The position numbers and the translations under genes are program-made. A model generated the notes under the pieces. The model saw only the letters and a program-made list of their open reading frames with translations. It did not search any database and had not been told where the DNA came from. From IMG/VR virus record IMGVR_UViG_3300025132_000119, positions 1 to 37,016 of that record: 37,016 nt of DNA, one strand, 5' to 3'. This DNA comes from a virus (lineage: Duplodnaviria > Caudoviricetes). Shown in pieces: positions 1,727 through 29,179 of this stretch. Numbering within the stretch: the stretch's first letter is position 1; each line of letters opens with the position of its first letter.

Positions 1727-1939
1727 CTACTTATATCCGCCCCCTTTGGCTTTATATTCTTTAGCTAACAACTGAGCTTTCCTAGCAGACCATTGACCTG
1801 CTTTACCACCCTTCGTGCCTGCTTTTATTTTATTAAATAAATTCTTACGCATAGTAGGCTTAGTATAATTGCCTGCTTCGTTTACTCTAGAGCCTTTGTT
1901 TTTTTTAACTCTAGGCTTTTTAGTTGTGCAATGTCCCAT
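1727..1939 (-). CDS. Small basic protein, N-terminal half of DUF5872-like domain
   Basis: YTKPTMRK..GGKAGQWSARKAQLLAKEYKAKGGGY. Confidence 0.8.
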   Translation of the reverse strand: MGHCTTKKPRVKKNKGSRVNEAGNYTKPTMRKNLFNKIKAGTKGGKAGQWSARKAQLLAKEYKAKGGGYK

Positions 1940-1948
1940 TAGTTTCTC

Positions 1949-2437
1949 CTATCTTTTTCCTGCAGGTGTAAAATAAAATCCTATTATAGCTCCCAAAGTG
2001 GTAATCGAGACGAGGGAGATATGTCCTGTAGTGATTGCCGTTGTGATTCCTTCGTCGATAGGCATCTTATAGAGTCCCCACAAAACGCTGATCTCTTTCG
2101 CTTGCTCTGGTGGAACAAATGTGATGAGTTCGATTGTTGGGTAGATGGTACATAAGATCGAGATTGTGGCGAAGTTGAGCATCCCGATAAGAGCAATGAT
2201 CCTACGAGTAGTCCTAGTAAAAATCGTTGCTTCAGGGTCTTCACTCGCATCTCCAAATATTGCCTTTTGAAATTCAACATCAGCCTCCTTCATCTGCATA
2301 TCACGAATTAGTTCTCTTTTAGCTTCTGCTTCTTTAGCCTCGTTGCGACTTTGAACAGCACCTGCTACAATTTTTAGCATCGACCCCATTCCTGTAGCAC
2401 CTAGAGTCGATACTAGCATTGTTATTAATCCAAACAT
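1949..2437 (-). CDS. Membrane protein, putative holin
   Basis: Three hydrophobic segments, C-terminal IIGFYF plus basic tail. Confidence 0.55.
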   Translation of the reverse strand: MFGLITMLVSTLGATGMGSMLKIVAGAVQSRNEAKEAEAKRELIRDMQMKEADVEFQKAIFGDASEDPEATIFTRTTRRIIALIGMLNFATISILCTIYPTIELITFVPPEQAKEISVLWGLYKMPIDEGITTAITTGHISLVSITTLGAIIGFYFTPAGKR

Positions 2438-2446
2438 ATAGTCTCC

Positions 2447-2806
2447 TTATAATAAAGGATTTTTCTTATCAGTTAGTTTATTAACTTTTTCTTTAAGTCC
2501 TTTAACTTCTGTTTCGAGGACTTTAAGATTTGTTTCAACTTCGCTTGTATCTGGAATATCCAACCCTTCAACTTTACCTTCAAGGACTTTAATAGTTCCT
2601 TTAACTTCTTCAATTTGTTTGCCAATATGTCCAATATCATTGTCTTCTATCCTCGTTTCTAGTTTAGTTAATCTAGCTTCTAGATGTGTAGCATCTGTTG
2701 AAGCCTCCAAAGCAGATACCTTTTCTGTTAAAGTTCCATAACCTACAGCAGCTCCTCCAATAGAAGATGCTATACCTAACCATAAAGCTACATCTTGTGG
2801 TTTCAT
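2447..2806 (-). CDS. Membrane-anchored coiled-coil protein
   Basis: Hydrophobic N-terminus followed by heptad repeats; GGAGG RBS. Confidence 0.65.
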   Translation of the reverse strand: MKPQDVALWLGIASSIGGAAVGYGTLTEKVSALEASTDATHLEARLTKLETRIEDNDIGHIGKQIEEVKGTIKVLEGKVEGLDIPDTSEVETNLKVLETEVKGLKEKVNKLTDKKNPLL

Positions 2807-3612
2807 TGTTCTCCTCCAATTCTAGGTTCAGGATTAACCTGAATATCATTATAATAAAAAGGTACAGTAGCATACATATCATACATTAAACTATTTACAC
2901 CTACATTAGCTTGATTCCAATCAAGATTTAATTGAGTATAATTTAGCTGATCTATTGATACTGAAGCATTTGTAAAGAAATCCATAATAGTATTTGTAGA
3001 CATAAAAGCATGAGCTATAGTATCTATTACAAATGAATCTTGAGCATAGGCTTCAATCATATTCTTAGTCATACTAGCTTCTAACATACCATCTATAGAT
3101 GTATTAAACTTTTGTCTGCTAGATTCTTTAATAGCTCTAAGATCATTTTCAGTTGCATATGCTTCTGCATTTATCTTAGTCTCTTGATCTCCATTTACAA
3201 GTTTATCTGCTAATTCAGTTACTGCTGATATTTCTGAGGCAGCTTCAATTAGAGACTCTTTTTCACTTTCATAGGTTTCTTGCTCTAGGTCAATCATATC
3301 GTTCAATAGAACAAGCGAGAGAGCCTCTGGAGTGCTGTTTACAAGCCCATCTGCATATGCTTGGTTAAATACATCCATTTGTTCTGCTGTTAGTTCGTAC
3401 TCTTCACCGCTTGTAGGATGGTATATAATAGTTGTACCATCTGCCATTGACTGTGTGCTCCATTGAATATAGTCTTGTATTCTATTCTGTACTACATTCT
3501 TCATTTCTGATGAAGCGTCGTTTAGTGAAGTCATATCGTAATCGTTCTCCCCTGCACTCGTCTGTTGGCTCAAGCTTAGTGGAGCTATTAACAACAAGAG
3601 GGTCAGGAACAT
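2803..3612 (-). CDS. Acidic hypothetical protein with predicted signal peptide (start uncertain; track start 3645)
   Basis: MFLTLLLLIAPLSLS N-terminus; ATGA overlap with next gene. Confidence 0.6.
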   Translation of the reverse strand: MFLTLLLLIAPLSLSQQTSAGENDYDMTSLNDASSEMKNVVQNRIQDYIQWSTQSMADGTTIIYHPTSGEEYELTAEQMDVFNQAYADGLVNSTPEALSLVLLNDMIDLEQETYESEKESLIEAASEISAVTELADKLVNGDQETKINAEAYATENDLRAIKESSRQKFNTSIDGMLEASMTKNMIEAYAQDSFVIDTIAHAFMSTNTIMDFFTNASVSIDQLNYTQLNLDWNQANVGVNSLMYDMYATVPFYYNDIQVNPEPRIGGEQ

Positions 3613-4072
3613 ACTGTGGGTTTTTAACATAATATTCAATGGCATCTTCTCCTATTAATCCTTTTATTGGGCAGGGTGTTTGGGCATTTCTCATAGCCCA
3701 CCAGACACGAGGGTCTTGGCAAAGAATTGAAGTGGCAGCCACCTTCAAACCTAAACTACTTAATTGTCTTGAAAGCTTTAACATCTCACAATTCTTATCA
3801 ACTTTTAAAGTATTAAAACTAATACCAAGCTGTAATGATTGCAGTCCTCTGCCCGATGAAATAACACAGGCATCTTGATTATAAACAGGAACACCATTAC
3901 CGACTGCTGTGGTTACTGGCATACCTTCTTGATTAACTGTTGTTTCTGTAGTGGTAGTTATTGTTTCTGCTTGTTGATTAGTACCAAAGTCTCCAACAGT
4001 TGCTTCACTTCCACTAGCTTGTATGTGCTGACTGATAAGAATACAAACTATTAGTATTATTAATTTCTTCAT
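3482..4072 (-). CDS. Cys-containing hypothetical protein with signal peptide
   Basis: MKKLIILIVCILISQHIQA; DKNCEMLKLSRQL..LCQDPRV..TPCP. Confidence 0.75.
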   Translation of the reverse strand: MKKLIILIVCILISQHIQASGSEATVGDFGTNQQAETITTTTETTVNQEGMPVTTAVGNGVPVYNQDACVISSGRGLQSLQLGISFNTLKVDKNCEMLKLSRQLSSLGLKVAATSILCQDPRVWWAMRNAQTPCPIKGLIGEDAIEYYVKNPQYVPDPLVVNSSTKLEPTDECRGERLRYDFTKRRFIRNEECSTE

Positions 4073-4334
4073 TAAATATTAACTCTTCTATTTTAAGTAC
4101 CCAAGAAGTAGGTATTGCTATATGACCACCTCCTTCTTTTAAAGTGTCGTCTTCTGTTACTATTCTAGAACGCATCACTATTACTTTATTACTATCTCTA
4201 TGAACAAGCCATCCTATTTCTTGACAAATAGCAGGCTCATGTGCTACAATATCTTCAATATCTGTCCATGAACCATCACTGTCTTGAGCATCTAGCCAAG
4301 TTAAACGAACCATTGGAATATCTTCAATCTGCAT
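4014..4334 (-). CDS. Small hypothetical phage protein
   Basis: VRLTWLDA..W..C..IGWL..IAIP pattern. Confidence 0.7.
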   Translation of the reverse strand: MQIEDIPMVRLTWLDAQDSDGSWTDIEDIVAHEPAICQEIGWLVHRDSNKVIVMRSRIVTEDDTLKEGGGHIAIPTSWVLKIEELIFNEEINNTNSLYSYQSAHTS

Positions 4335-7300
4335 TTACTAACCCACCTTCAGCAAATTGAGGAAGACCATTTTCTAATACATCTTTTTTAAGTTTATCGT
4401 TAAATTTTAGAACATAAAAAGTTTCATCTAGATCTTCAAACATTTCATTATCACTTCTAATTTTTAATGGTTTTGTTTCAACTGTTAGTCCATATTTTTT
4501 TGCTAATTTATTTAAATAAGATCTTCCTTTTTTATCATAAAGCACATCAAATTTTTCTTCAAAACTTTCACCATATCTATTTGTATGAGTTTTTCCTAAA
4601 GTTAAAGCTATTCCATCATCCCCTTTATCTACAGCATCTATAACACTTTTATTTATTGCTAATTTATGCCATGTATCTTTAAAAGGAGCATCTTTTAATT
4701 TATTAGAATATCCACCTGTTTCTATTACAGGAAGCATAAGGTCAAAAGAATTACCATCAAACTCAGCTAGTAATGTTTGTAACTCTTCTGTTATCATTTT
4801 TTCTTTTAAAAATGTATTTTTTTCTTCTAGTTCAGATAACATTTCTCCAACTCGTTTTTTCATATATTTATTAAATTGATATTCTAAAATACCTTGTCTT
4901 CTAGGTTTTAAGTCTTTGCTTTTTAAATATTCTGGAAACTCTTTTACAAATCTTGTTCTTTCTACAATTAATTCGTTAATTAGTTCTTTATTTAAACCAA
5001 ATTTTCCTAAAAATTTAACTGCTTTATTTACATCTTCTGCATCAACATATCCTTCAAAAAGTGTAAATTTATTAAGATATTCTGGTGTAGGCATATCTTT
5101 ATCTAAAGGATCTTTAATGTTATCATATCTATACTCAGACTCATAAAAATTACTTTTTATATCTTCATAGAATCCTGAATCAAATATTTTTTCATAATCA
5201 TCACCTTCAAATAGTTGATCAATATTATAATTTATTTCAGCTAAATCTCGGTCAGTTGGAACAAACTCAGCATAAGGCGAAGTAGGATCTTTTGCATATC
5301 CATATTTTCGACCATCCCTATGATAATCAGATTGCATTTCTTCTATAATACTATAAGATACTTTATTTTCATCATAACCCTCAGACAGTCTTATATGCAT
5401 AAAGTTTTTATTGTAATTTGGTATATCTATATGATGTTCTGATTGACTTTTCATATTTTTAAATTTACCAACCTCAGGAAATTGAGCCACTATTTCTCTA
5501 TAATTAGTATTTTTAAAAGGCAAACTATCCATAAGAGAATCTATAATCATATCAGTATCTGTTATATCTACATTATCAAAAAAAGCTTCATTATATCTTG
5601 CATCATATTTATCTAATTCTAATGCAGGATCAAAATCATCATCATTAGTTAGTCTTTTCATAAACTGACCTAACGTAGGTACTCCTTCTGGAAACTCTGC
5701 TCTTATTTCTTCTGTTTCTTTCATTTTAAGATTGTTAATAAATTCATCATTTTCTGGATCAGGTTTTGTTTTCTCGTGTGCTATAGTATACTGTTCATAC
5801 TCAGGTCCAAAATCATCTATAGAATCTCTAAATATTATTTTAGGAGCTGATTTAGAAACAATTTCTTTTACTTCATCTTTAGTAAGATTTGGTTTCATAA
5901 ACAACTGATCCATTATTTCTGAATATTCTAGTTCATCTTGTGTAACAAAAGGTTTTTTCTTTAACTCATTATAAAAAGTTTTACCACTACCTTTTTGAGT
6001 TTTAAGTTGTTTAGCAGCTTCTTCTACTGCACTAAAAAAACCTTTACTTCCTTTAGCTGATAATGATCCATAAACAAATTTACTTCTATCTTCTGAGTCT
6101 TTTATTAAAGATTGTCTAGCTGCTAAGTCTTCTTCCCCAATAGAATTTAAATAATCTTGAGTATCTGAGTTAATCCAAAACTCTAATTCTCTAATTCTTC
6201 TTGGACCAAAGTCGTCTTTAAAATCTTTTAAGTTTTCTACAAAAGCTTTCCAATCTCCTGAAGTTGCTTGCTTCCAAGCATTAGGAGTTTTTGTTTTCAT
6301 ATTTCCATACTGTGTAGTAATACTAGCTAGTATAGTTGCTTTTCCTTTAGGTAAAGAACTAAATAAAGTTCCAGTATCTTCTTCCCACATTTCTCTTAAT
6401 TTAGATTCTACTTCTTTATGAATAGTTTCTTTAATAATATCATACTCTTCATCTGTAAGTTTTAATGGATTTAATTTTAAAAACTCTACAGCTTTTTCTT
6501 TCTTTAAACCTAAATAAGGAATTAATTTTTCTTGTAAAGATTTAGGTAATTTTTTTAAGTCTTCAACTTTTCTAGCTCCTAAATCATAACCAGTTGAAAC
6601 TGTTACTCCTGATTCAGATTTTTCAGGCATAGGCACTACTGCTTCTAAAGTTTTTAAAGCATCTTCTTGTTCTGATATAAAATCCCAATCTACTTTAGAT
6701 CTTTTTGATTTAATATTTTTTACAGCAGTAATAGCTTTATCATTTATTCTTTTATCTTTAATATTTTTAAGAGCATTTATTGCTTTATTTTTTATAACAG
6801 GAGCAGATATATTTAAAGTATCATCAACTGAAATATCATTCATGTTTCCTATTTCATTAACTTCCATTAAATTTTCTACTGTAGTATTAAATTTTTTAGC
6901 TATTGAAGATAAAGTATCTCCTTTTTTAATACTATAACTGTCTACTGTTTTAACTTTACTGCCTTCATTAAATATTAATCTTCCACCACTATAACGCATT
7001 TCTCTAAGATCTGTTAAATCATATTCTGCTGCGTTCATATTTTTAAATTGATTTGCATCAAATAAAATATAAGATGAAAAATCTTCTCCTTGTATTGGAG
7101 TTTCTTTAAAGTTTCTATATTGAATACCATCAAATCCTAATTCTTTTAGATAGTTTTGAAACTTTTTATCCATCAAAGAATATTCAAATCTTTCTTTTAT
7201 ATCTACATAAGTAGATAATTTTGGATTTATCATCTTTTCAATTTGATCTTCATCAGCTTTAAATCTAATATCTGATATTTCATTTCTTAGTTTATTTAAG

Positions 7301-10300
7301 TTAGCAAGTTCTTTTTTACTAAGCTTTCTTTTTAAACCATCTTCTAAACTAAATAATACATCATCATAAAAATTAGTTAATAAATTTTCTGAAGTCCAAA
7401 GTCCATAATCAGTATCAAACTTTAAAGGTTTTTTAAGATTAATATATCCACTCTTTATGGCTAAAGGCGGAGTTCCTATTTCATCTACACCAAGTTTTTC
7501 TGCAAGTTTTTCTGCTATTGCTCCCTGCTCTACAAAAAAATCTTGATAATCTTTCATTGACAATTGTAATGGAACATCTTTTTCAAGTCTTGCAGGTATT
7601 CCTAAATCTTCAGCTTTTCTAGAAAGAGCTTTAGCAAGTATAAAATTAGCTTGACCTACATTACCTACATGGACACCCATCTCTCTAGGAACAGCAAAAC
7701 CTATTTCATAATCTGTATCTATCATGTTTGTTATACCACGATATACTCTTGTTTTAACAACAGAGTCTTTTAACATTTCTTCTAAACTTTCGTTTCTAAT
7801 AACTGGATCAACTTCAGGAACATCTAATATAGAATTTTTAGGCGGTATAATTTTTGACATCTTTTTGAAGTCTTCTAATTTTGTAGGATCTTCTTTTACA
7901 ATCTTAGCTAAAATATTTTTAGCTGATTCTCTAGCTCCTTTTTCTGTTATAGTATCACTATTATTTTTATCTTTTAAAATACGCATAGCTGTGTAATTAA
8001 TTAGTGATCCTAATTCTTCATTTATATTAGAAGAATCTACATCTAAATCTATTAGATTTTCATGTTTAGTTACTATAGGATATAAAGACTGTGCAATATC
8101 TTTATTAATTTTAATATCATCTTTAACACTTAATCTTTTATCTTGTGTTATTGGTTTAATACTTAACATATTATCAACTTTACTAGCAATAATATCATCT
8201 ATATCATTAGCTGATATATTTAATTTTTGTAAAGAAGGCACTACTTTTCTTATATTTTCAGATGCTTCATTAACTATTTTAGTTTCAAAAATTTGGCTAG
8301 TTGCATTATTTATTTGTTTTGCTAAAGGTCCTGCAAGTTTTGTAAATAAAACACCACCGATAGCTAATCCAGTACGTTCTTCTCTATCTAGTATATCTGT
8401 AAAAGCATCTCCTGCTTGTTGATTATAAGGAATACCTGTTATTTTATCTATTCTTTCATCAGGCTCAGAAGCTGCTCTAGGTATATCAATTATACCACCT
8501 TTATTATTAAAGTCTCTTTTTGGAACAACTAATTCTTTAAATGCTTTATCCCAATCTTTTAACATCTCAGAATACTCTTGTTCAGCATCATCTCCAAATA
8601 TTAAATCTGCTGAAGTCCAAAAAGGAACTTTTTTACCAAAAAATTCTGCAGGATTCTTTTTGTCAAGTAATGATATAGTATCAGTTCCAAATGGACCAAA
8701 CGGAACACCTAAATAATAAAAAGGATTTCTAGTATATTGTACATTCTTTCTTCCTCTTTCTAGCTGATCATATATTATACCAAAACCACCTATTCTTGTT
8801 ACAGCATCTTTATAAATTTCATGTGGTGCTTTATCTTCTGATTTACCTCTAGTTCTAACATAGTTAGTAAACCTTGCAGTATTCAACATTAATAAAGCAG
8901 CTATAGCTACACTTGGAACAGTTTCAGGATATTTAGCTAATTGTTTAAGACCGCCCTTTAATACTGTATTAGAAAAAGCTGTTGGGTACGATAATAAACC
9001 ATATAAAAAACTTGAATTAGGACTACTATGCCATAATGGTTTTAAATTAGACATAGAATTTGGTTGTAATATAACACCATTAGTATATCTTGCAGCTCCA
9101 TTTAAAAGACCATTTTTATAAAATGAATCATCTAAATTTGATCCTGAATTATACCATCTTACTGCATCATCTATATCTATATCTAACTCTCTTAATCTTC
9201 CTTTAGCTACATTGACTCTTCTAGTTGCAGCCCTTGATCCTCTTAAAGCAACAGTTCTTATATCTCTTTCAATTGCATTTTTACCAGATGCAAAAGAAAC
9301 TGTTTGAACAAATCTTGTCCATTGATCTAGTAATGTAACTTTAAAAAATTTATTACTTATTTCTTGCATTGCTTTATTTTCTAATACATCACCAGTTAAT
9401 CTATTATCTATTTGACTAATTGATTGTTGAACTGCAATATTAAATCTTTTTAGTTCTGCCCAAGCTTCATTTACAGTTAAACCATGTTTAGTTATAAGTT
9501 TAGAATGTGCATCACCAAAAGCTGTTTTAAAACCTAACTCTAAAGATTGAATAAAACCTTTTGAAAATTGTAATGGTCCTCCTTTTGCTACATTTATAAA
9601 TATTTCACCAAGACTTGATAAAGTAGCTTCAGATAAGTAAGCCAGTCTATTTATTAAAGCATATCCACTACTTACATTTTGTCTAATAACACCATTACTT
9701 TTTATTTCACCTGTTGTAGTTTTATATAAATTTAAAATATCTTTTCTTTCTCGATCAGATAATATTTTACCTGAAGCTTCCATTTCTTTAGCAATTTTAT
9801 TTATCCAAACTGTTTCAAATTCTGTAGCATTAGTAGCTTTAAAAACTTTTTTCTTAGCTAAAGCTTTACCTGCTTGAAAAGAATATTGATGAAATATTGT
9901 TGTAAGATCTTGATTAAAAAACTTTGCAAACATAGAATCATCTTTAATATCTATAAGTTTTCGTTGTGCTGAAAAGAAATGACCTGTGCCAGTATTACCT
10001 ATTTGATTTTTAATTTCTAATAAACTTTTTAAAAGTTTTTCTGCTTCAACTATATTTTTAGATTGACCAGACTTAACTAATAACTCTTTAAACTCTTCTT
10101 GATTATTTTCAATAGTTTTTCTATTCCACATACGAGGAATATAATTTTCTACTTGTTTATCTATTAAACCTTCTTGTTCTAAAACATCACCCATTTCTTT
10201 AAATAAAGTTCTAATTTGTAAAGCTGCTTTATTTATTTCTGGACTTGTAGATTCACCACCACGAATAGCTACATTTAAATCTTCTAGTACTTTGTCTTTT

Positions 10301-12009
10301 ATTTTAATATTTTGTTTATTGATAGATAAAGGTTGTAGTATTCTAAAAAAACTTTGATTTACATTTCCTGTATAAAGTCTAGCAACTTCAAAGAAATCTT
10401 TTTCTATTCTTTTTTGTTGAGGTGTTCCAATCTTAAATTCTTCTGCAAACTCATGTGCTAAAAGTGTTTGAAGTTTTTTAGCTGTTGGAGAAAACTTAAC
10501 ATAAGGAGTTAAAATATTAGGAGCTTTACCACCTATAAGTTTTCCTGTAATATCTGATCCAATCTTATGAAATGTAAATTTTATTTTATTAACTTTTTCT
10601 TTTGGCGAAAGATTAGAAGCAAGAATATCTTGCACTTCATCTGAAATTATTTCTTTTGTTTCTTCTCCTGCATCTATTTTATTAACAAAATTATTTATAG
10701 ATGAATCAAATTTTTCAAAATCCAAATCTAAATTAGTTTGATAAAATTCATCTTCACTATCAAATTCTATTTGACGATTTATTAATGTTGCTTCAGATTT
10801 TTCAAGCTCCTTAGCTAATCTATTTAAATCTAAATCTGTAACAACTTCATCTGTTAAATTAGCTATAGTAGGATCTACTAAATCTAATTGCTCTTGAACG
10901 CTAATGTCATCCATAAAATCAAATTGCATTTGAGTTTCTAACGGACCATCATCAGGAACAGTATCTAAATTATGCTCTAATATTTTAGCTTCAGTTTTAG
11001 AAGCTACTTTATTTTTAGCCCAACCTAATGCTTTAGGAAATCCTTTACCAAATAAAGGAACACCAACAGCAGTTCCTGCTGCCGATAATCCTGTTTCAAA
11101 AAAACTATATTCTTTACTAGGATCAAAAGACATACCTAACTTTTGATATTGATCTCCATAGACAGTACCATAAGTTAGACCATATAAAGATAATCCTCCT
11201 GTAGTATTTAATTTATTAGCTGCAAATTTAACACCACTTTCTCCTGTTTTCAATCCTTTATATACAGCATCACCTCCAAGATTTTTTCCTATTCCTGAAG
11301 TAAGAGCTTTTTTTAATCCTTCTCTAGCTGCTAATACAGGACCTGCTGCTGTACCTCCTGAAAAAACTATTGCAAGAATAGTAGGCAATATTTCATAATT
11401 AGCTAATAAATCTACAGCATAATCACCTGTTGCACCAAGACCTTCTAAAAATCCTTTTATTTCAGTTTTATTATGCCATACATCATTTACCTCTTGCATA
11501 GCTTGTTTTATTTCGTCAGGAGCATCTTTAAAAATTGATTTATGATTAAACATAGTAGTTATTCTATTAGTTTGATCACGTAGTATTTCAGATGGTCTAG
11601 TATCTCCACCTGTATCAACAGTAGCTAAATCTAATTTGCCTAATAAACTTTCATTGTTATGTATATAGTCTGTAATTTTATCTATTCTTTCTACTATATA
11701 TGGAGATTCATTAAATTCTTTAACAGAAAGTTTAAATTCAGAATTATCTTCATTGCCTGTATAAGCTTCAGAATCAATAATATTTTGAATTTTTAAATCT
11801 CTAACTTTTTTATTAATTAAATCATCATCAATTAGATCAGGTTTAAAATCTGGTTTTCTTGCTTTTCTGCTTTCATTTATTGCACTTCTCCTGTCTATTT
11901 GAGAAACAGGTTCAACTTTTTCTATTGAGTCAATAGGTTTTTCTTCTTCTTTTTGATCAACATATTTTTCAATCAAAGATTGTGCATATTCATAAGAATC
12001 ATATGACAT
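4324..12009 (-). CDS. 2561-aa polyvalent internal virion/ejection protein with ADP-ribosyltransferase-like, LysM and pesticin-type muramidase domains
   Basis: VYRG..GVHVG..YINLKKPL..GFDGIQYRN..YILFDANQFK (ART-like); YSIKKGDTLSSIAKKFNTTVENL (LysM); SESGVTVSTGYDLG..LIPYLG (pesticin-like); EEMQSD domain at C-terminus. Confidence 0.8.
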   Translation of the reverse strand: MSYDSYEYAQSLIEKYVDQKEEEKPIDSIEKVEPVSQIDRRSAINESRKARKPDFKPDLIDDDLINKKVRDLKIQNIIDSEAYTGNEDNSEFKLSVKEFNESPYIVERIDKITDYIHNNESLLGKLDLATVDTGGDTRPSEILRDQTNRITTMFNHKSIFKDAPDEIKQAMQEVNDVWHNKTEIKGFLEGLGATGDYAVDLLANYEILPTILAIVFSGGTAAGPVLAAREGLKKALTSGIGKNLGGDAVYKGLKTGESGVKFAANKLNTTGGLSLYGLTYGTVYGDQYQKLGMSFDPSKEYSFFETGLSAAGTAVGVPLFGKGFPKALGWAKNKVASKTEAKILEHNLDTVPDDGPLETQMQFDFMDDISVQEQLDLVDPTIANLTDEVVTDLDLNRLAKELEKSEATLINRQIEFDSEDEFYQTNLDLDFEKFDSSINNFVNKIDAGEETKEIISDEVQDILASNLSPKEKVNKIKFTFHKIGSDITGKLIGGKAPNILTPYVKFSPTAKKLQTLLAHEFAEEFKIGTPQQKRIEKDFFEVARLYTGNVNQSFFRILQPLSINKQNIKIKDKVLEDLNVAIRGGESTSPEINKAALQIRTLFKEMGDVLEQEGLIDKQVENYIPRMWNRKTIENNQEEFKELLVKSGQSKNIVEAEKLLKSLLEIKNQIGNTGTGHFFSAQRKLIDIKDDSMFAKFFNQDLTTIFHQYSFQAGKALAKKKVFKATNATEFETVWINKIAKEMEASGKILSDRERKDILNLYKTTTGEIKSNGVIRQNVSSGYALINRLAYLSEATLSSLGEIFINVAKGGPLQFSKGFIQSLELGFKTAFGDAHSKLITKHGLTVNEAWAELKRFNIAVQQSISQIDNRLTGDVLENKAMQEISNKFFKVTLLDQWTRFVQTVSFASGKNAIERDIRTVALRGSRAATRRVNVAKGRLRELDIDIDDAVRWYNSGSNLDDSFYKNGLLNGAARYTNGVILQPNSMSNLKPLWHSSPNSSFLYGLLSYPTAFSNTVLKGGLKQLAKYPETVPSVAIAALLMLNTARFTNYVRTRGKSEDKAPHEIYKDAVTRIGGFGIIYDQLERGRKNVQYTRNPFYYLGVPFGPFGTDTISLLDKKNPAEFFGKKVPFWTSADLIFGDDAEQEYSEMLKDWDKAFKELVVPKRDFNNKGGIIDIPRAASEPDERIDKITGIPYNQQAGDAFTDILDREERTGLAIGGVLFTKLAGPLAKQINNATSQIFETKIVNEASENIRKVVPSLQKLNISANDIDDIIASKVDNMLSIKPITQDKRLSVKDDIKINKDIAQSLYPIVTKHENLIDLDVDSSNINEELGSLINYTAMRILKDKNNSDTITEKGARESAKNILAKIVKEDPTKLEDFKKMSKIIPPKNSILDVPEVDPVIRNESLEEMLKDSVVKTRVYRGITNMIDTDYEIGFAVPREMGVHVGNVGQANFILAKALSRKAEDLGIPARLEKDVPLQLSMKDYQDFFVEQGAIAEKLAEKLGVDEIGTPPLAIKSGYINLKKPLKFDTDYGLWTSENLLTNFYDDVLFSLEDGLKRKLSKKELANLNKLRNEISDIRFKADEDQIEKMINPKLSTYVDIKERFEYSLMDKKFQNYLKELGFDGIQYRNFKETPIQGEDFSSYILFDANQFKNMNAAEYDLTDLREMRYSGGRLIFNEGSKVKTVDSYSIKKGDTLSSIAKKFNTTVENLMEVNEIGNMNDISVDDTLNISAPVIKNKAINALKNIKDKRINDKAITAVKNIKSKRSKVDWDFISEQEDALKTLEAVVPMPEKSESGVTVSTGYDLGARKVEDLKKLPKSLQEKLIPYLGLKKEKAVEFLKLNPLKLTDEEYDIIKETIHKEVESKLREMWEEDTGTLFSSLPKGKATILASITTQYGNMKTKTPNAWKQATSGDWKAFVENLKDFKDDFGPRRIRELEFWINSDTQDYLNSIGEEDLAARQSLIKDSEDRSKFVYGSLSAKGSKGFFSAVEEAAKQLKTQKGSGKTFYNELKKKPFVTQDELEYSEIMDQLFMKPNLTKDEVKEIVSKSAPKIIFRDSIDDFGPEYEQYTIAHEKTKPDPENDEFINNLKMKETEEIRAEFPEGVPTLGQFMKRLTNDDDFDPALELDKYDARYNEAFFDNVDITDTDMIIDSLMDSLPFKNTNYREIVAQFPEVGKFKNMKSQSEHHIDIPNYNKNFMHIRLSEGYDENKVSYSIIEEMQSDYHRDGRKYGYAKDPTSPYAEFVPTDRDLAEINYNIDQLFEGDDYEKIFDSGFYEDIKSNFYESEYRYDNIKDPLDKDMPTPEYLNKFTLFEGYVDAEDVNKAVKFLGKFGLNKELINELIVERTRFVKEFPEYLKSKDLKPRRQGILEYQFNKYMKKRVGEMLSELEEKNTFLKEKMITEELQTLLAEFDGNSFDLMLPVIETGGYSNKLKDAPFKDTWHKLAINKSVIDAVDKGDDGIALTLGKTHTNRYGESFEEKFDVLYDKKGRSYLNKLAKKYGLTVETKPLKIRSDNEMFEDLDETFYVLKFNDKLKKDVLENGLPQFAEGGLVNAD

Positions 12010-18959: not shown

Positions 18960-18977
18960 AATTAAAATCCTCGTTTA

Positions 18978-20011: not shown

Positions 20012-20014
20012 TTG

Positions 20015-21670: not shown

Positions 21671-21671
21671 C

Positions 21672-22442: not shown

Positions 22443-22455
22443 ATATTATATACCT

Positions 22456-22704
22456 TTATTTGTCTTCTTTACGTTGACTTGATTCTTGATAGCCTGCCAT
22501 TGAATTACATTTTTTTTCCATATCTCTAATAGATGCAAAGCCACCATGACCATACATCATGCGACCACCACCCATTTTTTCTACTCTGCCACCATGCATC
22601 ATTTTTCCTTTGCCATCAGCAGCATAAAAAGGTACACGCTTACCATCTTTTTCTACCATTTTAAGTTTGCCACCATCAGCCATTTTCTTTTTGTCGTACA
22701 TCAT
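22456..22704 (-). CDS. 82-aa Met/Gly/Lys-rich protein with four xxGG motifs
   Basis: GGAGG RBS before MMYDKKK (start corrected from 22767). Confidence 0.75.
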   Translation of the reverse strand: MMYDKKKMADGGKLKMVEKDGKRVPFYAADGKGKMMHGGRVEKMGGGRMMYGHGGFASIRDMEKKCNSMAGYQESSQRKEDK

Positions 22705-22843
22705 TTTTAGATCCTCCAAAAATTTTGTCATAATTATCATTATAGTTTTTTCTAGCTTCACCACCATAAACAGAACTATTTATTCTTACTGTTCCTTTAT
22801 GACCTAATCTTACTGGTTTTCCTGTTGTTCCTATTTGACTCAT
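22676..22843 (-). CDS. 55-aa hypothetical protein
   Basis: GGAG RBS before MSQIG (start corrected from 22885); YNDNYDKIFG. Confidence 0.65.
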   Translation of the reverse strand: MSQIGTTGKPVRLGHKGTVRINSSVYGGEARKNYNDNYDKIFGGSKNDVRQKENG

Positions 22844-22853
22844 GTAAATCTCC

Positions 22854-22885
22854 AATAAAACAAGAGGGGTTTTTACACCCCTCAA
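22854..22885 (-). terminator. Rho-independent terminator after major capsid gene
   Basis: GAGGGGT-GTAAAA-ACCCCTC followed by TTGTTTT. Confidence 0.8.
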
Positions 22886-22900
22886 GTTAATTACCTAATA

Positions 22901-23896
22901 TTAGTCTGTGCTATAGAAAGCTTTAACTAATGCTTCTTTACGTAATACACTTGCACCATAAACATGAAGACCTCTAACAATATCACCAAAGCTAGAAGGA
23001 TCACGAATGACCTCAGTATTTACGATAGTTTGTGCAGTTGCAGTAGCAGAAACATGACCTGCTAATACTTGTTTAACTACACCACCTGTTGAAGTAGCAG
23101 GAATGTTATTAGACTTATACATTTCAAAGCCACGTAATTTTCCAGAACTAACTAGACCATTACGAATAGAGCCTTGACCTGCATTGAAGTCTACAGACAA
23201 CAATTTAGAACCTGACTGACTTAACTCTTCATAAAAATCAGGAGATGCTACAAAGAATCTTCCTTCTTCTGGTACATTAGCTTCGTCAAGTAAACGAGCC
23301 ATACGTGCTAAAAGATCAAGAGGATCTGTTTCGCCAGAATCAAAACCTAAATCAACTGGAGAAGAAGCACTATCCAAAGTAGAGTTATTGTTATGAGCTG
23401 CATCAGCACCTAAGATGTGGTCAGTACTTGCTTGACCATCACCAAAGCGAGTAAAGTTTCCATCAGCACCTGCAAGCATTTCTGTAATTACACCTGTATC
23501 AAATGCATCACGTAATGCATAAGCTGCTGAAGATGCTGCTACTTCTTTAAAGTTTACGTGAGACATATTTTCTTCAATGTCATCTACGATAAATTTAAAT
23601 GCGTTAGCTACATCAACTACTAAAGTACTTTCAGTATCTGTTAAAGTAGTTTTAGTAATATCAGCACCACGCTCATACTGATGAACATCAATAGTTGGTT
23701 CTTTAATTATTTTTACTGTATCACCGAAAGATGCAATTTCACCTGCATAGTCAGTGTTTGTTATTGCTTCTGCAACTGAAGCTTTACGGAAAAAGTTTAA
23801 AACCTTTTTCGAATAGACTTCAGGTAAGAAGTTATTTCCTGTGAAGTTACTGCCACTTGATTGGGCAAAGTTCACATCTGATTGGTTAAAAGCCAT
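22901..23896 (-). CDS. Major capsid protein
   Basis: NFLPEVYSKKVL..TNTDYAGEI..GDTVKI..FGDIVRGLHVYG; follows scaffold; terminator downstream. Confidence 0.9.
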   Translation of the reverse strand: MAFNQSDVNFAQSSGSNFTGNNFLPEVYSKKVLNFFRKASVAEAITNTDYAGEIASFGDTVKIIKEPTIDVHQYERGADITKTTLTDTESTLVVDVANAFKFIVDDIEENMSHVNFKEVAASSAAYALRDAFDTGVITEMLAGADGNFTRFGDGQASTDHILGADAAHNNNSTLDSASSPVDLGFDSGETDPLDLLARMARLLDEANVPEEGRFFVASPDFYEELSQSGSKLLSVDFNAGQGSIRNGLVSSGKLRGFEMYKSNNIPATSTGGVVKQVLAGHVSATATAQTIVNTEVIRDPSSFGDIVRGLHVYGASVLRKEALVKAFYSTD

Positions 23897-23937
23897 GATT
23901 AGTTACCTCATTATAAAAAGAATAAAAGTTATAGAAA

Positions 23938-24771
23938 CTAACGTACTCTTCCTTCTCTAACGGCTAGATCAATTTCTTGTTCATATTTGTCATAATCATC
24001 CATAGAAAGAGCGTTAATTTCCTTCCGAGTCCAGATCTTAGGCTCTTTAGTATCTATTGAAGTTGTTCGAGTAGATACCATGTCTGCTGCAGATCCAGTA
24101 GATTGCGACTTACTTGACTTTCTTTTAGAACTATTTGTTTTAATACCATTTTCTAATTTATATAAATCAATAGCTTTGACTGCTAAATTAACATTATCTG
24201 GGTTTTGATAGATCCACTTTTGAATTTCTTCAGGTTGTGATTCTGCCCATGAATGAAAAGCATCACTTCTTTTAAGATCTTCATAATCAGGATGAGCCTG
24301 TTTTAAAGTTGTTTCAGCTTCTCGTTTAGTTATTGCTGCTTCTTTTTGTTCAAGAACAGATAACTTAGCTCGTAAGCCGTCAGTTTCTTCTTGACTTCGA
24401 AGATGAGCTACAGTTTCTACAGTATCATATAGATCGGGATATTGTTGTTTAAACTGTTCAAGATCTTCAGGTGTCTTAGGAGGAGCATAAGATGGTCCTT
24501 CTTTTGATGCCATTAGTTCTTGCTCACGTTGCTTAAATGTAGCAACTTTTTCATCATAATGTTTTTTTAAATCATCATATCGTTTTTTATAATTAGTTCT
24601 TTGTTTTTTTGTTTCTTCTTCTACAGGGGCTTCATTACTGGAGGTAGCCTGTGGTGTATCATCAAAAAATAAAGAATCAGCATCTCCTTTACTAGGTTTA
24701 TCTGGTGTATGCCAAGATTTATTTCTATTATAAGGGTTTGCTGTTGGTTCTTGTTCTGTTTTATCTGTCAT
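23938..24771 (-). CDS. Capsid scaffolding protein
   Basis: YKKRYDDLKKHYD coiled coil; C-terminal EIDLAVREGRVR; directly upstream of MCP. Confidence 0.85.
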   Translation of the reverse strand: MTDKTEQEPTANPYNRNKSWHTPDKPSKGDADSLFFDDTPQATSSNEAPVEEETKKQRTNYKKRYDDLKKHYDEKVATFKQREQELMASKEGPSYAPPKTPEDLEQFKQQYPDLYDTVETVAHLRSQEETDGLRAKLSVLEQKEAAITKREAETTLKQAHPDYEDLKRSDAFHSWAESQPEEIQKWIYQNPDNVNLAVKAIDLYKLENGIKTNSSKRKSSKSQSTGSAADMVSTRTTSIDTKEPKIWTRKEINALSMDDYDKYEQEIDLAVREGRVR

Positions 24772-24779
24772 TGTCGCTC

Positions 24780-24913
24780 TCCTTTTGGGGCTTTTAGTCT
24801 TTCAAGGTGGCTATATTGTTAGCTACACAATATAAGGGCTTGAACTTAAAAGGTCGCCTCTAGGTTAATTATTATTTATGTAAGGGGCTAAAATAAATTT
24901 AGGTAGCCTTACG
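24780..24913 (-). promoter_or_regulatory. Putative structured cis-regulatory leader of scaffold gene
   Basis: Two stem-loops carrying three GCNACC/GCCC internal-loop motifs adjacent to the RBS. Confidence 0.6.
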
Positions 24914-26599
24914 TTATCGTTTTTGCATTTGGCTTGATTGTATCATCATAGAATTAAGTTCTTTATCAATATTATTTTGATTATTATTCATCATAACATT
25001 GCTAGTGCTTGAATCCTGCATCATACCACCAACTGCTTGTTGTTGTCGTTGATCAAAACTTCGTTCAGCATTATCCATTAACATTTGGAGATTATCTGCA
25101 CCAAGTTCTTCAACTGACTTTGCGGTGAATACAAATTCACCATCCGATAACCTAGCAGGTATCGAATCTGATGTTCCAGTGCCCATACCATTTACAGTAC
25201 CTGCACCAGAAAATTCTGTTGCTACATCCATAACTCTATCAAAGATAGTACTTAGTTTTGGATCTTGTTCTAAAGCTTCCATAAGATAATCTTGATCTCT
25301 ATCATTTAAAGCTTCATCAATAATAAATTCTTCATGTTTTTCTTCCATTACATCATCAGGTAGTTGAGAAGCTTTTACTGCTTCCATTTCTTCAGGTGGA
25401 ATATTTGAGTATGTATCTACAGGCATACCACCTTCTTGAAAAGGTTGTCTAACAAAACTTTTAAATTTTTCACCTAATCCTACCATCATTGTTCCTTCTT
25501 TATTTTTTGTTAATGTTTTTGATCCACGAAAAAATTGTTCTCTTTCTTCATCCCCTTCTTCTGCTTGTTCTATTTTTGATTTAGCTTCTTCATTAATATT
25601 ATACATTTTATTATTAAATTCAAACTCAGTTTCATTCTTTACTACAGCTTCAGATACAGCATTTTCAAAAGGAACCACTTCTTCAGGCTGTGGAGGTGTA
25701 GTATTTTCTGCAAACCATATATCAGCAAGAACTGGTGCAGGGACATTTACTTGTTCTATTTGTATTTGTTCTTCTTCTGGATCTTCTCTATCTAATGTTC
25801 TAGGTCTACGCTCTTCTTGTTCTCTAGGCATTGGAGTTTTTCTTTCAGGAGTAGATAATAAAGTTTCTTCTGAAGGTCCTCTGTTTATTTCATTAACATC
25901 ATCTTTAGCTGCTTGAAGTAATGAATCAGCTCCTTTAGCAGCTTCTTGTGCTACTGAGCCTACAGCTTTTTTAGTTCTTTTAGTTTTTTTCATTTTATCA
26001 CCTTCATTTTTTTTATTTTTATCTAAAAATGTTTTATTTATAATTTTTATAATTGAAGGATCATAGATTGTATATTCTAATTCACCTCCTACTTGTTTTA
26101 TTGAAGATCCTCTTGCATCTTTTATAGATCCTTTAATTCCATATTTAGAAAATAATTCATCTGCATCTTTTTCTGTTGCTTTTAGAATCTGTCTCCAAAA
26201 TTTAGGTTTATCTAAATTTAAGTCATCTATATTAATATTTTCTTTTTCAATTAAAGTTTTTAATTTTTTTTGTACTTGTTTATTTTGATTATCAAAATTT
26301 TTTCTAACTATTAAGGTTTCGTTATCTTTTAAATTTGCTTCTACTTGATATAATAAAGGTTCGCCTTCTTTTTTTCTTTCAATAGCTGCATCTAAATATT
26401 TTTTACCATAAAGTTTTTTAAGTTCAAAAGGAGTAATTTTAGCGTAACTTTCAGCTACTTTTTTATCAGGAGTAAATGAAAAACCTTTTCCAAAAGCTGT
26501 TTCAGTAGCATATTTAGAATCAAAAGATTTAAAATCTTTTTTAGCTCCATGAAAAAGTTTTACTGCTCCTTTAGCTAAAAGAGTACCTGCTCCTGACAT
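24914..26599 (-). CDS. Fusion of N-terminal ADP-ribosyltransferase-like domain with a head-module protein (GTGTSDSIPARLSDGEFV domain; protease candidate)
   Basis: LFHG..F..FD..FGKGFSFT..AESYA..YTIYDP; between portal and scaffold; possible internal start at 25993. Confidence 0.65.
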   Translation of the reverse strand: MSGAGTLLAKGAVKLFHGAKKDFKSFDSKYATETAFGKGFSFTPDKKVAESYAKITPFELKKLYGKKYLDAAIERKKEGEPLLYQVEANLKDNETLIVRKNFDNQNKQVQKKLKTLIEKENINIDDLNLDKPKFWRQILKATEKDADELFSKYGIKGSIKDARGSSIKQVGGELEYTIYDPSIIKIINKTFLDKNKKNEGDKMKKTKRTKKAVGSVAQEAAKGADSLLQAAKDDVNEINRGPSEETLLSTPERKTPMPREQEERRPRTLDREDPEEEQIQIEQVNVPAPVLADIWFAENTTPPQPEEVVPFENAVSEAVVKNETEFEFNNKMYNINEEAKSKIEQAEEGDEEREQFFRGSKTLTKNKEGTMMVGLGEKFKSFVRQPFQEGGMPVDTYSNIPPEEMEAVKASQLPDDVMEEKHEEFIIDEALNDRDQDYLMEALEQDPKLSTIFDRVMDVATEFSGAGTVNGMGTGTSDSIPARLSDGEFVFTAKSVEELGADNLQMLMDNAERSFDQRQQQAVGGMMQDSSTSNVMMNNNQNNIDKELNSMMIQSSQMQKR

Positions 26600-26602
26600 T
26601 TT

Positions 26603-26833
26603 TTATTCCTCTATTCTTTTTCGAGCTTCTATACTTTGTTCTCTTAATGTTAATAGTTTATCCAGAGAATTCACTCTCCCCTGCCTGCGGAACATTTCCT
26701 GTTCCGATGTTGCCACCACCAGTGCCTGTAACTCCAACGTCTTGAGGTTGTTCAGGTGCTCCTTGAACGCCTCCCATAGCTCCTTGTTGTTCGTTAGGGG
26801 AGACAGCTTGGCTGCCAGTTGCTTGTCCAACAT
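26603..26833 (-). CDS. Small protein downstream of portal
   Basis: GGAG RBS; W..FKEHL..EMFRRQG; overlaps the portal 3' end. Confidence 0.7.
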   Translation of the reverse strand: MLDKQLAAKLSPLTNNKELWEAFKEHLNNLKTLELQALVVATSEQEMFRRQGRVNSLDKLLTLREQSIEARKRIEE

Positions 26834-28829
26834 TTTGTGCTCCTATTATCTGTGCCATGATTGCTGCTTCTTCAGGATCATTTAATATTTCATCTGGATC
26901 TAAATCTAAACTATAAGCAAGCTCACTGACAATTTTAGAGATCTTAACAAACGGAGCAATGGCAGGATTTTGTGCCGTTTGTAAGAACATTGTTAATCTT
27001 TGACTTCGTACTTCTTTCTGCATTAAACTATTTGTACCCATAGCTTTAACTTCTAGATCACCTTGTATATCTATAGGACCTTCAAAGAATTGCATATTCC
27101 ATTGATAATAAGCTTCACCTAATGGTTTAAGTAAGAAATCATCTAAATTCTTTACTACTGTTTTAATATTTAAAGATGCTGCACCTAATAACATAGACAT
27201 ACCTGATGCAGTACGAGTCATAGATTGTACTCCTGTTTGACCATGAGAATAGCTAGGAATACCTGTTTGTTCATCTGCAAGCTGTCTAAACTTATCAAAC
27301 ATCATCATATTTTCTTGTGTAGTATTAGGAAACTTAATTCCATGTATTGCTTGACCACCCATGCCTGCTTGTCTTCTAAAAACTTTACCTGCATAAATAT
27401 CCATAGACTGTCCACCAACTAAAGCAGATTCATCTACATCAAATACTACTGATCCACTTAATGCAAGATTATCAATAGCCATTCTTGCATGACCATTCAT
27501 AATCTGTTGTGAATCATCCATGTTTTCTGCTACACCAATACCAAAGAAACTATAAGGATTCTTTTCGTATGTAAAAGCATTGTAAGGTATTCTATGTGGT
27601 GTAAATGGATTAACTACAGCTCTTAATACTTTACCATTACTTATCCAAGCATTAATTTGAACTTCATCTAAATCATCTACATCTTCAGATAATTCCATTC
27701 CTACTTCACGAGCATACTGAGCATCCATAATTCCCCAGTATTCTAATACTTCGTATTTATCTCCAACGCTTTCTTCGTTTCTTCTATCATCTTTTAATTC
27801 ATATTCATAATCTTTTTCTTCGTAATTACCACCCATTTGTAAACACTCACGAATAGCATCTTTATCAAAGTAAGGCATTTTAGATAATGCACGAAGTTGT
27901 GTTCTATTATATTTATGTCTATGAATTACAAACTCACATTCTTCTACTGTTGTTGCAGTTGGATCAGGAAAGAAATCCCATATACTTACAAACTCTATAC
28001 GAGGAACACGAACTGATACAGGAGTATAAGTACGAGTCTTTGCTGTTTCATCTGTATTCCATTTACCTATTTCTTTATTAAAATTAAATGGACCTTTTAC
28101 TATTCCTGTACCAAATAATGCAGATTCAAATATAGCATTGCGTAACTCACTTGATCCATTTGATTCTTCTATTTGGTCATGGATAAGCTTTTGCATTTTT
28201 CTAGCAGCTTCTTTAGCAGGAGATATTTCTAATGCTTTTGGATCTGGACTTGGACCTTCTTTAAATGTAAGACCTGCTTTTTTTATTTCATCTTCAAAAA
28301 GAGATTCACCTTTAGAAAAAGTAGCCCCTGCTTTTAATACCTTACCATCTCCTTCAAATCCTACATCAAAAGGATTTACCATTTCTTTTTGTTTTTGTTC
28401 AGGCGGAGCTTCGGAACTTTCTATGTCTGAGGGGCTTAAACTTAAATGCTTGTAGGTTTCAATACCTTCTGGAATTTTAGTTTCTGTAACACCTATAGGA
28501 AACTGTCCAGTTCCAAAGATAACATCTACAAGCTGTCCAAAAGCTGCAAGTACTTTTGTTTTAGTTACTTTAATAAATACTTTAGATTTTTCTGATTCAC
28601 GAAACTTAATGTGTTTAGGATATAAGCCTCTAAAGTTATGATAAGCAGTTAGCCATCTTCTTTCATCTTGATCTCTTGCATCTTCTGCTTGTTGATAACG
28701 ATCTTCAATTAAACCTACAAGTCTAGATCTTATGTCGTTTTCTAACTCTAATTGTAATGCAGACTCACCTTCAACAGGTTTAAAATATATTTCATCTGCA
28801 TTTTGCATTAATGAATTTTCTTCTTTCAT
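26658..28829 (-). CDS. Portal protein
   Basis: 723 aa after TerL; SKVFIKVTKTKV, GTGIVKG, WDFFPDP, FGIGVAE, RTASGMSML. Confidence 0.9.
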   Translation of the reverse strand: MKEENSLMQNADEIYFKPVEGESALQLELENDIRSRLVGLIEDRYQQAEDARDQDERRWLTAYHNFRGLYPKHIKFRESEKSKVFIKVTKTKVLAAFGQLVDVIFGTGQFPIGVTETKIPEGIETYKHLSLSPSDIESSEAPPEQKQKEMVNPFDVGFEGDGKVLKAGATFSKGESLFEDEIKKAGLTFKEGPSPDPKALEISPAKEAARKMQKLIHDQIEESNGSSELRNAIFESALFGTGIVKGPFNFNKEIGKWNTDETAKTRTYTPVSVRVPRIEFVSIWDFFPDPTATTVEECEFVIHRHKYNRTQLRALSKMPYFDKDAIRECLQMGGNYEEKDYEYELKDDRRNEESVGDKYEVLEYWGIMDAQYAREVGMELSEDVDDLDEVQINAWISNGKVLRAVVNPFTPHRIPYNAFTYEKNPYSFFGIGVAENMDDSQQIMNGHARMAIDNLALSGSVVFDVDESALVGGQSMDIYAGKVFRRQAGMGGQAIHGIKFPNTTQENMMMFDKFRQLADEQTGIPSYSHGQTGVQSMTRTASGMSMLLGAASLNIKTVVKNLDDFLLKPLGEAYYQWNMQFFEGPIDIQGDLEVKAMGTNSLMQKEVRSQRLTMFLQTAQNPAIAPFVKISKIVSELAYSLDLDPDEILNDPEEAAIMAQIIGAQNVGQATGSQAVSPNEQQGAMGGVQGAPEQPQDVGVTGTGGGNIGTGNVPQAGESEFSG

Positions 28830-28840
28830 TTAATTATCCT

Positions 28841-29179
28841 TTATGGTAATTCTTTAAATATGCTTAGTGTTGCTCGGTCTTTACCTACAGAAGCTGTAAT
28901 TTTTGCATTATTTTTTGTTGTGTGAGTATAGCTAAGTTCTTTATCTTTATATTTAAATTTATTACTTCCATATTTATTTTTAATTCTATCTATACTTCTT
29001 GTTTCAGTAAACCTTAATGGACCATATTTTGCAGTTGCAGAAGCAGATCCAAAATAGTTTCTTTTACCTGATCCTATGCCACCCTCTGCTGATCCACTTA
29101 AACTTATATCTAAATCACCAATAGATTTTTTAGTTACTAGACTTCCTTGATTATATTTCATTCTATTTTGTTTTTTCAT
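28841..29179 (-). CDS. Basic, beta-strand-rich hypothetical protein
   Basis: 112-aa ORF between TerL and portal. Confidence 0.7.
   Translation of the reverse strand: MKKQNRMKYNQGSLVTKKSIGDLDISLSGSAEGGIGSGKRNYFGSASATAKYGPLRFTETRSIDRIKNKYGSNKFKYKDKELSYTHTTKNNAKITASVGKDRATLSIFKELP

Follow-up and report, generated by a model that had tools for sequence, protein, structure and literature searches.

A short sequence tag recurs at the joints between exchangeable modules of proteins that are probably packed into the head of a marine virus, and related phages keep it at these joints. The DNA under study, hereafter the window, is the entire 37,016-base contig of IMG/VR record IMGVR_UViG_3300025132_000119 (Caudoviricetes), a partial genome that we assign to the HMO-2011-type marine podoviruses because the nearest matches of its capsid protein are those of the Pelagibacter phages HTVC115P (58%), HTVC103P and HTVC104P, followed by HMO-2011 and the Roseobacter CRP phages. 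A reading made without database searches (the sequence-only reading) had noticed the pattern R-x5-G-[G/S] in six late proteins, above all in a giant protein of 2561 amino acids (aa), and had proposed either a protease site that releases effector domains or a tag for loading cargo into the capsid. With about even confidence, we read the tag as a dock-and-cut signal for cargo that is likely packed in the head, which would be bound by a small module (GEFV) of a 561-aa protein and cut just before A-x-G-G. In the motifs below, an arrow marks the place before A-x-G-G or its equivalent.

Tag sequence and its position at module joints

The tag is under selection. In the 42 open reading frames (ORFs) of the window (11,544 aa), R-x5-G-[G/S] occurs 19 times, against 3.8 ± 1.9 expected and a maximum of 11 in 2000 within-protein shuffles, a frequency well above background. 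All 14 exact matches and 4 variants of the sequence-only reading were found where it had placed them, including the six tags of the giant protein. A weight matrix trained solely on outside homologues of the 561-aa protein (n = 125; 680 GG/GS sites) returned 16 window sites with a score ≥ 3 vs. 1.7 in shuffles, of which 15 were on the earlier list and one was a portal site; two listed sites scored low (RDFNNKGG 0.3, REMRYSGG 1.9). The improved consensus is [R]-x-x-[F/Y/M/K]↓[A/N/Q/S]-x-G-[G/S]-x-hydrophobic, and the R-x5 framing of the earlier reading gives way to a far wider x↓A-x-G-G-x-hydrophobic signal of which it is a local variant. What that reading had said about F or Y at the fourth position and a hydrophobic residue afterwards holds well, as in the giant protein F/Y at − 3 and the hydrophobic residue two places past GG are better conserved than R. 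In the family of the 561-aa protein, R stands six places ahead at 239 of 420 GG/GS sites upstream of the module (background 4%), and these upstream tags vary in position and in number (0–6 per protein).

Five exact matches were missing from the earlier list, about the number expected by chance. RTVALRGS in the giant-protein core was rejected as a tag (A or S at − 3 in homologues), and so were the portal and early-gene matches. The statement that the portal and early proteins have none is therefore incorrect for the bare pattern, which occurs twice in the portal and once in an early protein, and stands for the fuller tag in the portal, whose homologues have it in just 2 of 74 cases. Two listed sites had to be withdrawn. 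KNKKNEGD in the 561-aa protein is the in-frame reading of a ribosome-binding sequence, GAAGGTGA, followed by TAAA and ATG (25993, M203), while RVKKNKGS (1889–1912) in a basic protein of 70 aa is absent in the 12 homologues printed (of 26). This family instead keeps a C-terminal [Y]-K-[A/S]-x-G-G-G-Y-K, and KEYK↓AKGG is more likely to be the tag of the window protein.

The position of the tag at joints was established with homologues of the giant-protein core (best 120 of 202 examined). An IMG/VR scan for giant-protein loci found none, and these homologues come from a separate search; a scan of genome contigs gave 12 loci. Matrix sites numbered 248 in the 120 homologues vs. 49.5 in shuffles, and the tags were 29-fold denser in the cargo (2.06 per 1000 aa, 239 sites) than in the core (0.07 per 1000 aa, 9 sites). 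All 121 proteins have 2–6 tags past the core, and at the six sites of the giant protein G-[G/S] stays in its column in the numbers of aligned homologues given in Table 1, mostly with F or Y three residues earlier. The similarity of homologues to the giant protein begins or ends near aa 1160–1300, 1660–1740, 1960–2000, and 2540–2560. When the cargo regions were compared all against all, 28% of 25,722 internal alignment ends lay ≤ 15 aa from a tag vs. 5% of random points (the pairs are not independent); splitting the cargo at the tags gave 266 segments, which fall into 29 groups (one is lumped), and in some homologues whole cassettes between two tags are lost. Conservation at domain junctions, which the sequence-only reading had named as a test, was thus found in this family. 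Tag density, column conservation and alignment ends agree with its placement of the motif at the module joints of likely head-packed proteins, and support the exchange of cargo modules there.

The giant protein matches phrog_7348 and phrog_6958 (virion structural) and is placed after the tail genes like gp37 of phiRIO-1. The domain order given earlier stands for the LysM-muramidase part, which has Pfam matches. The "ART region" has no Pfam hit, and its consensus resembles an ART in pattern only; neither this module nor the last one had a Pfam or PDB match. The last module (4360–6060, minus strand) contains conserved H-x-R-x-x-D and E-x-Q-S-D motifs, which presumably resemble those of a nuclease-fold domain of polyvalent proteins. 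The optional "EPDER" cassette has no match in Atlas, isolated phages, Pfam or PHROGs. Its layout is the same as that of the GEFV module, with no detectable homology between the two.

The GEFV module, tagged proteins and gene order

Residues 463–515 are the conserved part of the 561-aa family and constitute the GEFV module, a candidate reader of the tag. The module is homologous to lambda gpH 732–787, JBD30 gp46 1016–1088 and Douge gp16 (PDB matches 8zdo, 8rk3, 8iyk): a tape-measure-type profile matches residues 461–531 of the 561-aa protein (E 9e−19) and the lambda segment (E 2.5e−5), with shuffles at ≥ 0.06. The module is abundant: its profile hits 17,072 clusters at 50% identity, and a 72-aa piece matched 603 isolated-phage records, mostly tape-measure proteins among the 60 listed. 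Neither Pfam nor NCBIfam yielded a family specific to it. The 561-aa protein itself is not a tape-measure protein: its gene has portal and scaffold genes on either side in a head module of podovirus type, and is no long helical ruler gene in a long-tail cluster.

In giant proteins, 3–6 GEFV copies occur per protein, each starting with A-x-G-G and mostly ending in F-A-x-G-G. Among 89 such copies, the opening A-x-G-G has G-G in 88; D, N and the pair G-E never vary (for G-E in part an effect of how the copies were chosen), and S hardly does. Because module copies open with A-x-G-G, the free tag may be regarded as a detached opening piece of the module. The window copy opens with F-S-G-A-G, having lost the first Gly (G-G in 49 of the 80 rows scored of a mixed alignment), other podovirus versions vary at the opening, and a second tag (RQQQAVGG, residues 518–525) follows the module; its R and GG hardly change across 37 sequences. 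HMO-2011 gp49 (L082:18773–21061) and CRP-1 gp49 (L296:27143–29290) have an N-terminal module with a different loop and a shared Cys-containing C-terminal domain. HTVC115P has the module in gp72 and tags in gp40. Two AlphaFold2 models, that of the module with pLDDT 72 (opening 20 residues ~52), gave no match to known folds, proteases included: Foldseek returned nothing at E ≤ 0.001, and the best VIA-align hit (Z 3.5) covered the helix alone. These searches probe little beyond the helix and exclude no family. Complex prediction with module residues 470–515 (81-row alignment) and a tagged N-terminus from the 694-aa protein scored 0.01, which is evidence neither way.

The 561-aa gene is likely a recent in-frame fusion of an ART-PolyVal-like cargo domain (E 2e−6, under the Pfam cut-off) ahead of a 359-aa unit, because homologues such as that of locus L001 start at ~M203 and the upstream domain had no match among the related proteins compared. 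The fusion (25991–26599) keeps the ribosome-binding sequence and ATG at 25993, and probably yields two products.

The tag and the gene for the module occur together. In the late regions of 11 related phages, scanned with a pattern refined after a first look, those whose module gene lies between the portal and scaffold genes (the window, HMO-2011, HTVC115P, CRP-1, CRP-2, and ctYwJ313) have 6–12 tags vs. 1.9–2.9 expected (p 0.003–0.05), and those without it (phiM6, RIO-1, CHOED, Slicky01, and MQM1) have 1–3 tags vs. 1.5–2.6 expected, so that the excess is present in 6/6 and 0/5, respectively. The sequence-only reading had suggested the 561-aa protein as partner of the tag; this co-occurrence and the GEFV module support it as a candidate partner.

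The tag is restricted to cargo-type proteins. In the best 80 of 596 related IMG/VR loci, a set picked for its likeness to the 561-aa protein and hence biased for it, tagged homologues were found for the 561-aa (79/80), 82-aa (7/7), 95-aa (9/27), and 70-aa (4/26) proteins and in 24 of 223 unclassified ORFs on the same strand, vs. 1 of 140 on the opposite strand. Head proteins were rarely tagged (capsid 1/76, scaffold 0/77, portal 2/74, terminases 0/47 for the large one and 0/30), and the same applies to tail proteins (tube proteins 0/56 and 2/42, fibre 2/24). Genes at the place of the 694-aa protein in HMO-2011, CRP-1, CRP-2 and ctYwJ313 bear tag pairs. Related loci contain many poly-tag proteins of 46–145 aa; Lys/Arg/Met-rich ones of 46–66 aa with four or five tandem tags (L035:3876–4040, L005:5747–5917, L050:5218–5400, and others) often terminate in K-[A/P]-[N/C]. 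The longest ORF of the 82-aa gene would encode 103 aa (22456–22767, minus strand), and the start at 22704 better fits the homologue lengths of 52–85 aa. Part of the likely cargo appears untagged, since the 467-, 219- and 605-aa proteins have no clear tag. The window copy of the 95-aa basic protein lacks a tag although some of its homologues have one. Past its tag, the 112-aa protein between terminase and portal (homologue L004:1036–1413) alternates Gly/Ser/Thr with aromatic residues, which suggests a small beta-sheet protein.

The coordinates are collected in Table 1. The fibre gene is followed by genes for proteins of 694, 467, 219, and 605 aa and then by that of the giant protein. Based on gene order and on phiRIO-1, a precedent for internal virion proteins encoded after the tail genes (PMC4819975, accessible part), these large genes likely encode internal virion proteins. 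The portal matches PF23899. GC and AT skew switch sign at ~31500–32100, where late (minus) and early (plus) genes diverge, and four small, strongly basic proteins lie at 531–1939 on the minus strand (phrog_7595, 14910, 17747).

Table 1 Features of the window (coordinates refer to the 37,016-base contig)
Feature	Position	Strand	Details
Late module	1–31,451	−	terminases, portal, 76-aa gene, 561-aa gene, scaffold, capsid, two tube proteins, fibre
70-aa basic protein	1727–1939	−	
C-terminal tag KEYK↓AKGG of 70-aa protein	1739–1762	−	Y-K-[A/S]-x-GGGYK end in 12/12 homologues printed
2561-aa likely internal virion (ejection) protein	4324–12009	−	core aa ~76–1160, then tag-separated cargo modules
C-terminal tag LPQF↓AEGG	4342–4365	−	5 residues from end; 32/32 aligned homologues, F at −3 in all
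Tag RSKF↓VYGS ahead of last module	6064–6087	−	17/32 aligned homologues
Pesticin-type muramidase cargo	6247–6696	−	PF16754, E 1.4e−36
LysM cargo	6808–6936	−	PF01476, E 3.9e−13
Tandem tags REMR↓YSGG and RLIF↓NEGS ahead of LysM	6982–7005, 6958–6981	−	64/80 and 22/33 aligned homologues
ART-like cargo module	7006–7812	−	85 aligned sequences
Tag RTGL↓AIGG ahead of ART-like module	8353–8376	−	56/87 aligned homologues
Optional ~48-aa EPDER cassette between two tags	8353–8505	−	present in 66/120 homologues
Tag RDFN↓NKGG, core end	8494–8517	−	G-[G/S] kept in 74/97 aligned homologues, F/Y at −3 in 66
Unlisted match RTVALRGS	9235–9258	−	giant-protein core
694-aa likely internal protein	15923–18007	−	
N-terminal tag RQAF↓QTGG of 694-aa protein	17951–17974	−	matrix score 9.0
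82-aa basic protein after capsid gene	22456–22704	−	four tags: 22669–22692, 22588–22611, 22564–22587, 22540–22563
Capsid	22901–23896	−	no conserved tag
Scaffold	23938–24771	−	no conserved tag
561-aa protein, between portal and scaffold	24914–26599	−	ART-PolyVal-like domain 26219–26563; 359-aa unit with own start 25993
Tags of 561-aa protein	25955–25978, 25520–25543, 25427–25450, 25025–25048	−	
GEFV module, candidate reader	25055–25213	−	aa 463–515; D478, S485, G487, E488 invariant (partly fixed by search pattern)
Portal	26658–28829	−	no conserved tag
Unlisted portal matches	27828–27851, 27354–27377		
112-aa protein	28841–29179	−	
Unlisted match RIKNKYGS	28964–28987		
N-terminal tag RMKY↓NQGS of 112-aa protein	29141–29164	−	single homologue found: KIKY↓NKGG
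Terminases	29182–31451	−	no conserved tag
Unlisted early-gene match	near 33377		

Docking, cutting and the alternatives

Under the dock-and-cut reading, the GEFV module of the 561-aa protein would bind tags in trans during prohead assembly and collect tagged chains near the portal, where each chain would be cut just ahead of A-x-G-G. The cut would free the muramidase, the ART-like and other modules as pieces small enough for tail passage, which could be injected and act alone, and it would turn the poly-tag mini-proteins into short basic peptides. Packaging of the tagged proteins is likely in view of gene position and the phiRIO-1 precedent; binding of tag and module is also likely, as the first residues of the tape-measure module are themselves the motif and both co-occur, and T5 and crAss001 point to a probable cut and its register. 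Least certain is that GEFV itself is the catalyst via its conserved Asp and Glu, which we advance tentatively. Yet more doubtful is the wider proposal that GEFV and its sister modules are undescribed miniature Asp/Glu self-processing proteases that read A-x-G-G-x-hydrophobic and include the catalyst of lambda gpH processing, with marine podoviruses having a stand-alone copy.

Intact-mass and proteomic data place a cut in the tape-measure protein pb2 of T5 after R1127 (Linares et al. 2023, PMC10038345, accessible part), where the sequence reads R1127↓AEGGMM. Window tags such as F↓AEGGLV, L↓AIGGVL, and M↓ADGGKL fit this T5-type signal. The T5 piece (pb2 1128–1186) belongs to a second common module, of the VGExGPELF type (E 7.5e−6; hhalign 89%), for which ~18,000 stretches were estimated in IMG/VR, and GG lies 11 residues ahead of it in 79 of 113 sampled members, usually as x-A-x-G-G with x = R, F, K, or P. 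Its profile finds T5 and no window protein. Pfam covers just the last 36 residues of pb2; VGExGPELF sequences are L305–L424 (IMG/VR). In crAss001, the portal-bound domain of gp45 is resolved from residue 425 to 552, with another resolved piece at 214–245 (PMC10172136, accessible part). This protein has about nine tags: residue 425 is the A of N↓AFGGWL, 552 lies just ahead of a tag at 560, and the smaller piece is flanked by tags at 207 and 261. Cleavage of pb2 and the start of the resolved gp45 domain thus share one register of the motif, and their agreement on a single residue is the strongest point for cutting. Lambda gpH is shortened to gpH* by loss of a ~14-kDa C-terminal piece from a glycine-rich region, with site and catalyst unknown (PMC12617516, accessible part); a cut at F733↓ATGG would give 12.5 kDa. 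Adenovirus and poxvirus proteases cut after G-G. Cleavage after G-G was considered for the tag as well and set aside, as the sole measured site (T5) is cut ahead of A-x-G-G.

Several points weigh against dock-and-cut. VGExGPELF and GEFV align over the tag only (hhalign 2–8%). The crAss001 authors treat gp45 as a single portal-spanning chain and detected peptides between the resolved pieces, and the accessible part of their paper does not mention cleavage (PMC10172136). The JBD30 authors call the module (1022–1066) a "hook" and saw no peptidase motif in it (PMC11445458, accessible part); they guess a cut at 1066. The literature searched reports no cut for HMO-2011-type phages, no known protease family was detected in the late proteins, and GEFV is small for an enzyme. 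The 6-vs.-5 split of related phages tracks phylogeny and may equal one or two events, and CRP-1 falls short of significance (p 0.11) under the first pattern, to which the second was added after a first look. Finally, the giant protein keeps its C-terminal tag invariantly (32/32), where a cut would remove just nine residues, which suits docking at least as well.

This C-terminal tag is the strongest point for docking alone, a possible though less probable explanation in which cargo is collected through attachment of the tag to the module, the portal or the scaffold, multi-tag proteins cross-link an internal core, and nothing is cut in podoviruses. Conserved tags a few residues from protein ends, proteins of 46–80 aa that are almost entirely tags, the portal-bound gp45 domain and the lack of a protease family among those sought are consistent with it, as are the P22 ejection proteins, which load via scaffold contacts (PMC8402733, accessible part). 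However, a single tag per chain would suffice for loading, yet each module is flanked, and pb2 cleavage and the first resolved residue of the gp45 domain coincide on one residue of the motif. The protease site and the loading tag of the sequence-only reading are compatible rather than alternative proposals for this phage, and cutting has gained support from T5 and crAss001.

The tags could instead be cut by a host protease or another phage protease, with GEFV as merely one more tagged piece of cargo, which we consider improbable. P22 gp7 is trimmed by the host OpdA to an N-terminus K-G-G-K-G (PMC8402733, accessible part), at least four module bodies with no relation to each other begin with the tag, and a protease gene may lie outside the partial genome. 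On the other hand, the P22 register is off from that of the tag by one residue, the signal is constant across Bacteroidetes, enterobacteria, SAR11, and actinobacteria hosts, the site may be preceded by R, F, K, or P, and tags accompany the module gene. Even less probable is a flexible linker or recombination joint spread by module shuffling without any reader: Gly-Gly gives flexibility, the motif is where homology breaks off and entire cassettes are lost between two tags, but R at − 6, F/Y at − 3 and the hydrophobic residue at + 3 are under selection, and tags are kept at protein ends, where a linker is needless. A chance pattern has a negligible probability. Chance would account for about 4 of the 19 matches, and two sites of the earlier list were withdrawn, but the counts in the window and in homologues (248 vs. 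49.5) and the matrix result refute it.

If the dock-and-cut reading holds and an eight-residue tag both loads and releases a domain, the swapping of injected enzymes would be explained. If the modules are also mini-proteases, long- and short-tailed phages would share a "load and cut here" code by which any tagged domain is packed, freed and injected. For lambda gpH, the prediction is cuts at F733↓A734 and Y778↓A779 that require E755. The tag may help to recognise genes for head-packed cargo in HMO-2011-type phages, which in culture are known from SAR11, SAR116, and Roseobacter hosts, and likewise in crAss-like phages, whose internal proteins mostly lack annotation.

Comparison with known systems

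T5 pb2 has the same x↓A-x-G-G-x-hydrophobic sequence at its cut, which separates an enzyme-bearing piece; unlike the window, it belongs to a long-tailed phage and has one site, in cis to a VGExGPELF-type module. The accessible part of the T5 paper gives the position of the cut and no motif (PMC10038345). In lambda gpH, the JBD30 gp46 hook and Douge gp16, the homologous GEFV module is bracketed by F/Y-A-x-G-G. In the window, by contrast, the module is part of a protein from the head gene cluster of a short-tailed phage, its opening lacks the first Gly, and five or six further proteins carry free tags. phiRIO-1, for which the accessible part of the report describes no clear processing by mass spectrometry (PMC4819975), has neither module nor tag excess.

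Judged by language-model features, the closest family with a name is PF25725 (crAss_CARG1; 0.83, no more than a lead), which includes crAss001 C1 (gp45), head-packed cargo with about nine A-x-G-G-type tags and a domain that starts at the tag A. PF25725 gave no hmmscan hit to window proteins at E ≤ 10 and 0.1–0.5% with hhalign (8-sequence alignment). Outside the tag itself, the comparisons of GEFV with CARG1, the T5 module and the EPDER cassette detected no link. Unlike gp45, crAss001 gp46, gp47, gp49, and gp50 have few or no tags.

The capsid-targeting sequence and gp21 protease of T4 and the head proteolysis of phiKZ and SPN3US are systems in which a short shared sequence selects head proteins, which are cut at maturation. 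The window differs from this type in having no prohead protease family (30–34 proteins; partial genome), in its untagged capsid, scaffold and portal, in tags that are internal and repeated, and in lacking Glu before the site (− 3 = F/Y/M/K/R). Polyvalent proteins are large and likely capsid-packed, with swappable enzyme domains including ART-PolyVal and a proposed proteolytic release (PMC5512222, accessible part). The window likewise has swappable domains (LysM, muramidase, variable modules) and an ART-PolyVal-like domain, while Pfam hits to MPTase or LPD are absent, and the accessible part of that paper names no linker motif. The accessible part of the DT57C paper presents resolved C-terminal helices without a conserved motif (PMC10713586), and that of a phi24B preprint deals with other motifs. 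No published description of the motif or the module as a family was found in a search that covered subscription papers sparsely. Head targeting with cutting and tape-measure cleavage are known kinds of process; the system of the window departs from the T4 type of the former in the features given above, and its 561-aa protein is not a tape-measure protein. The tag and its module are real, widespread and apparently undescribed.

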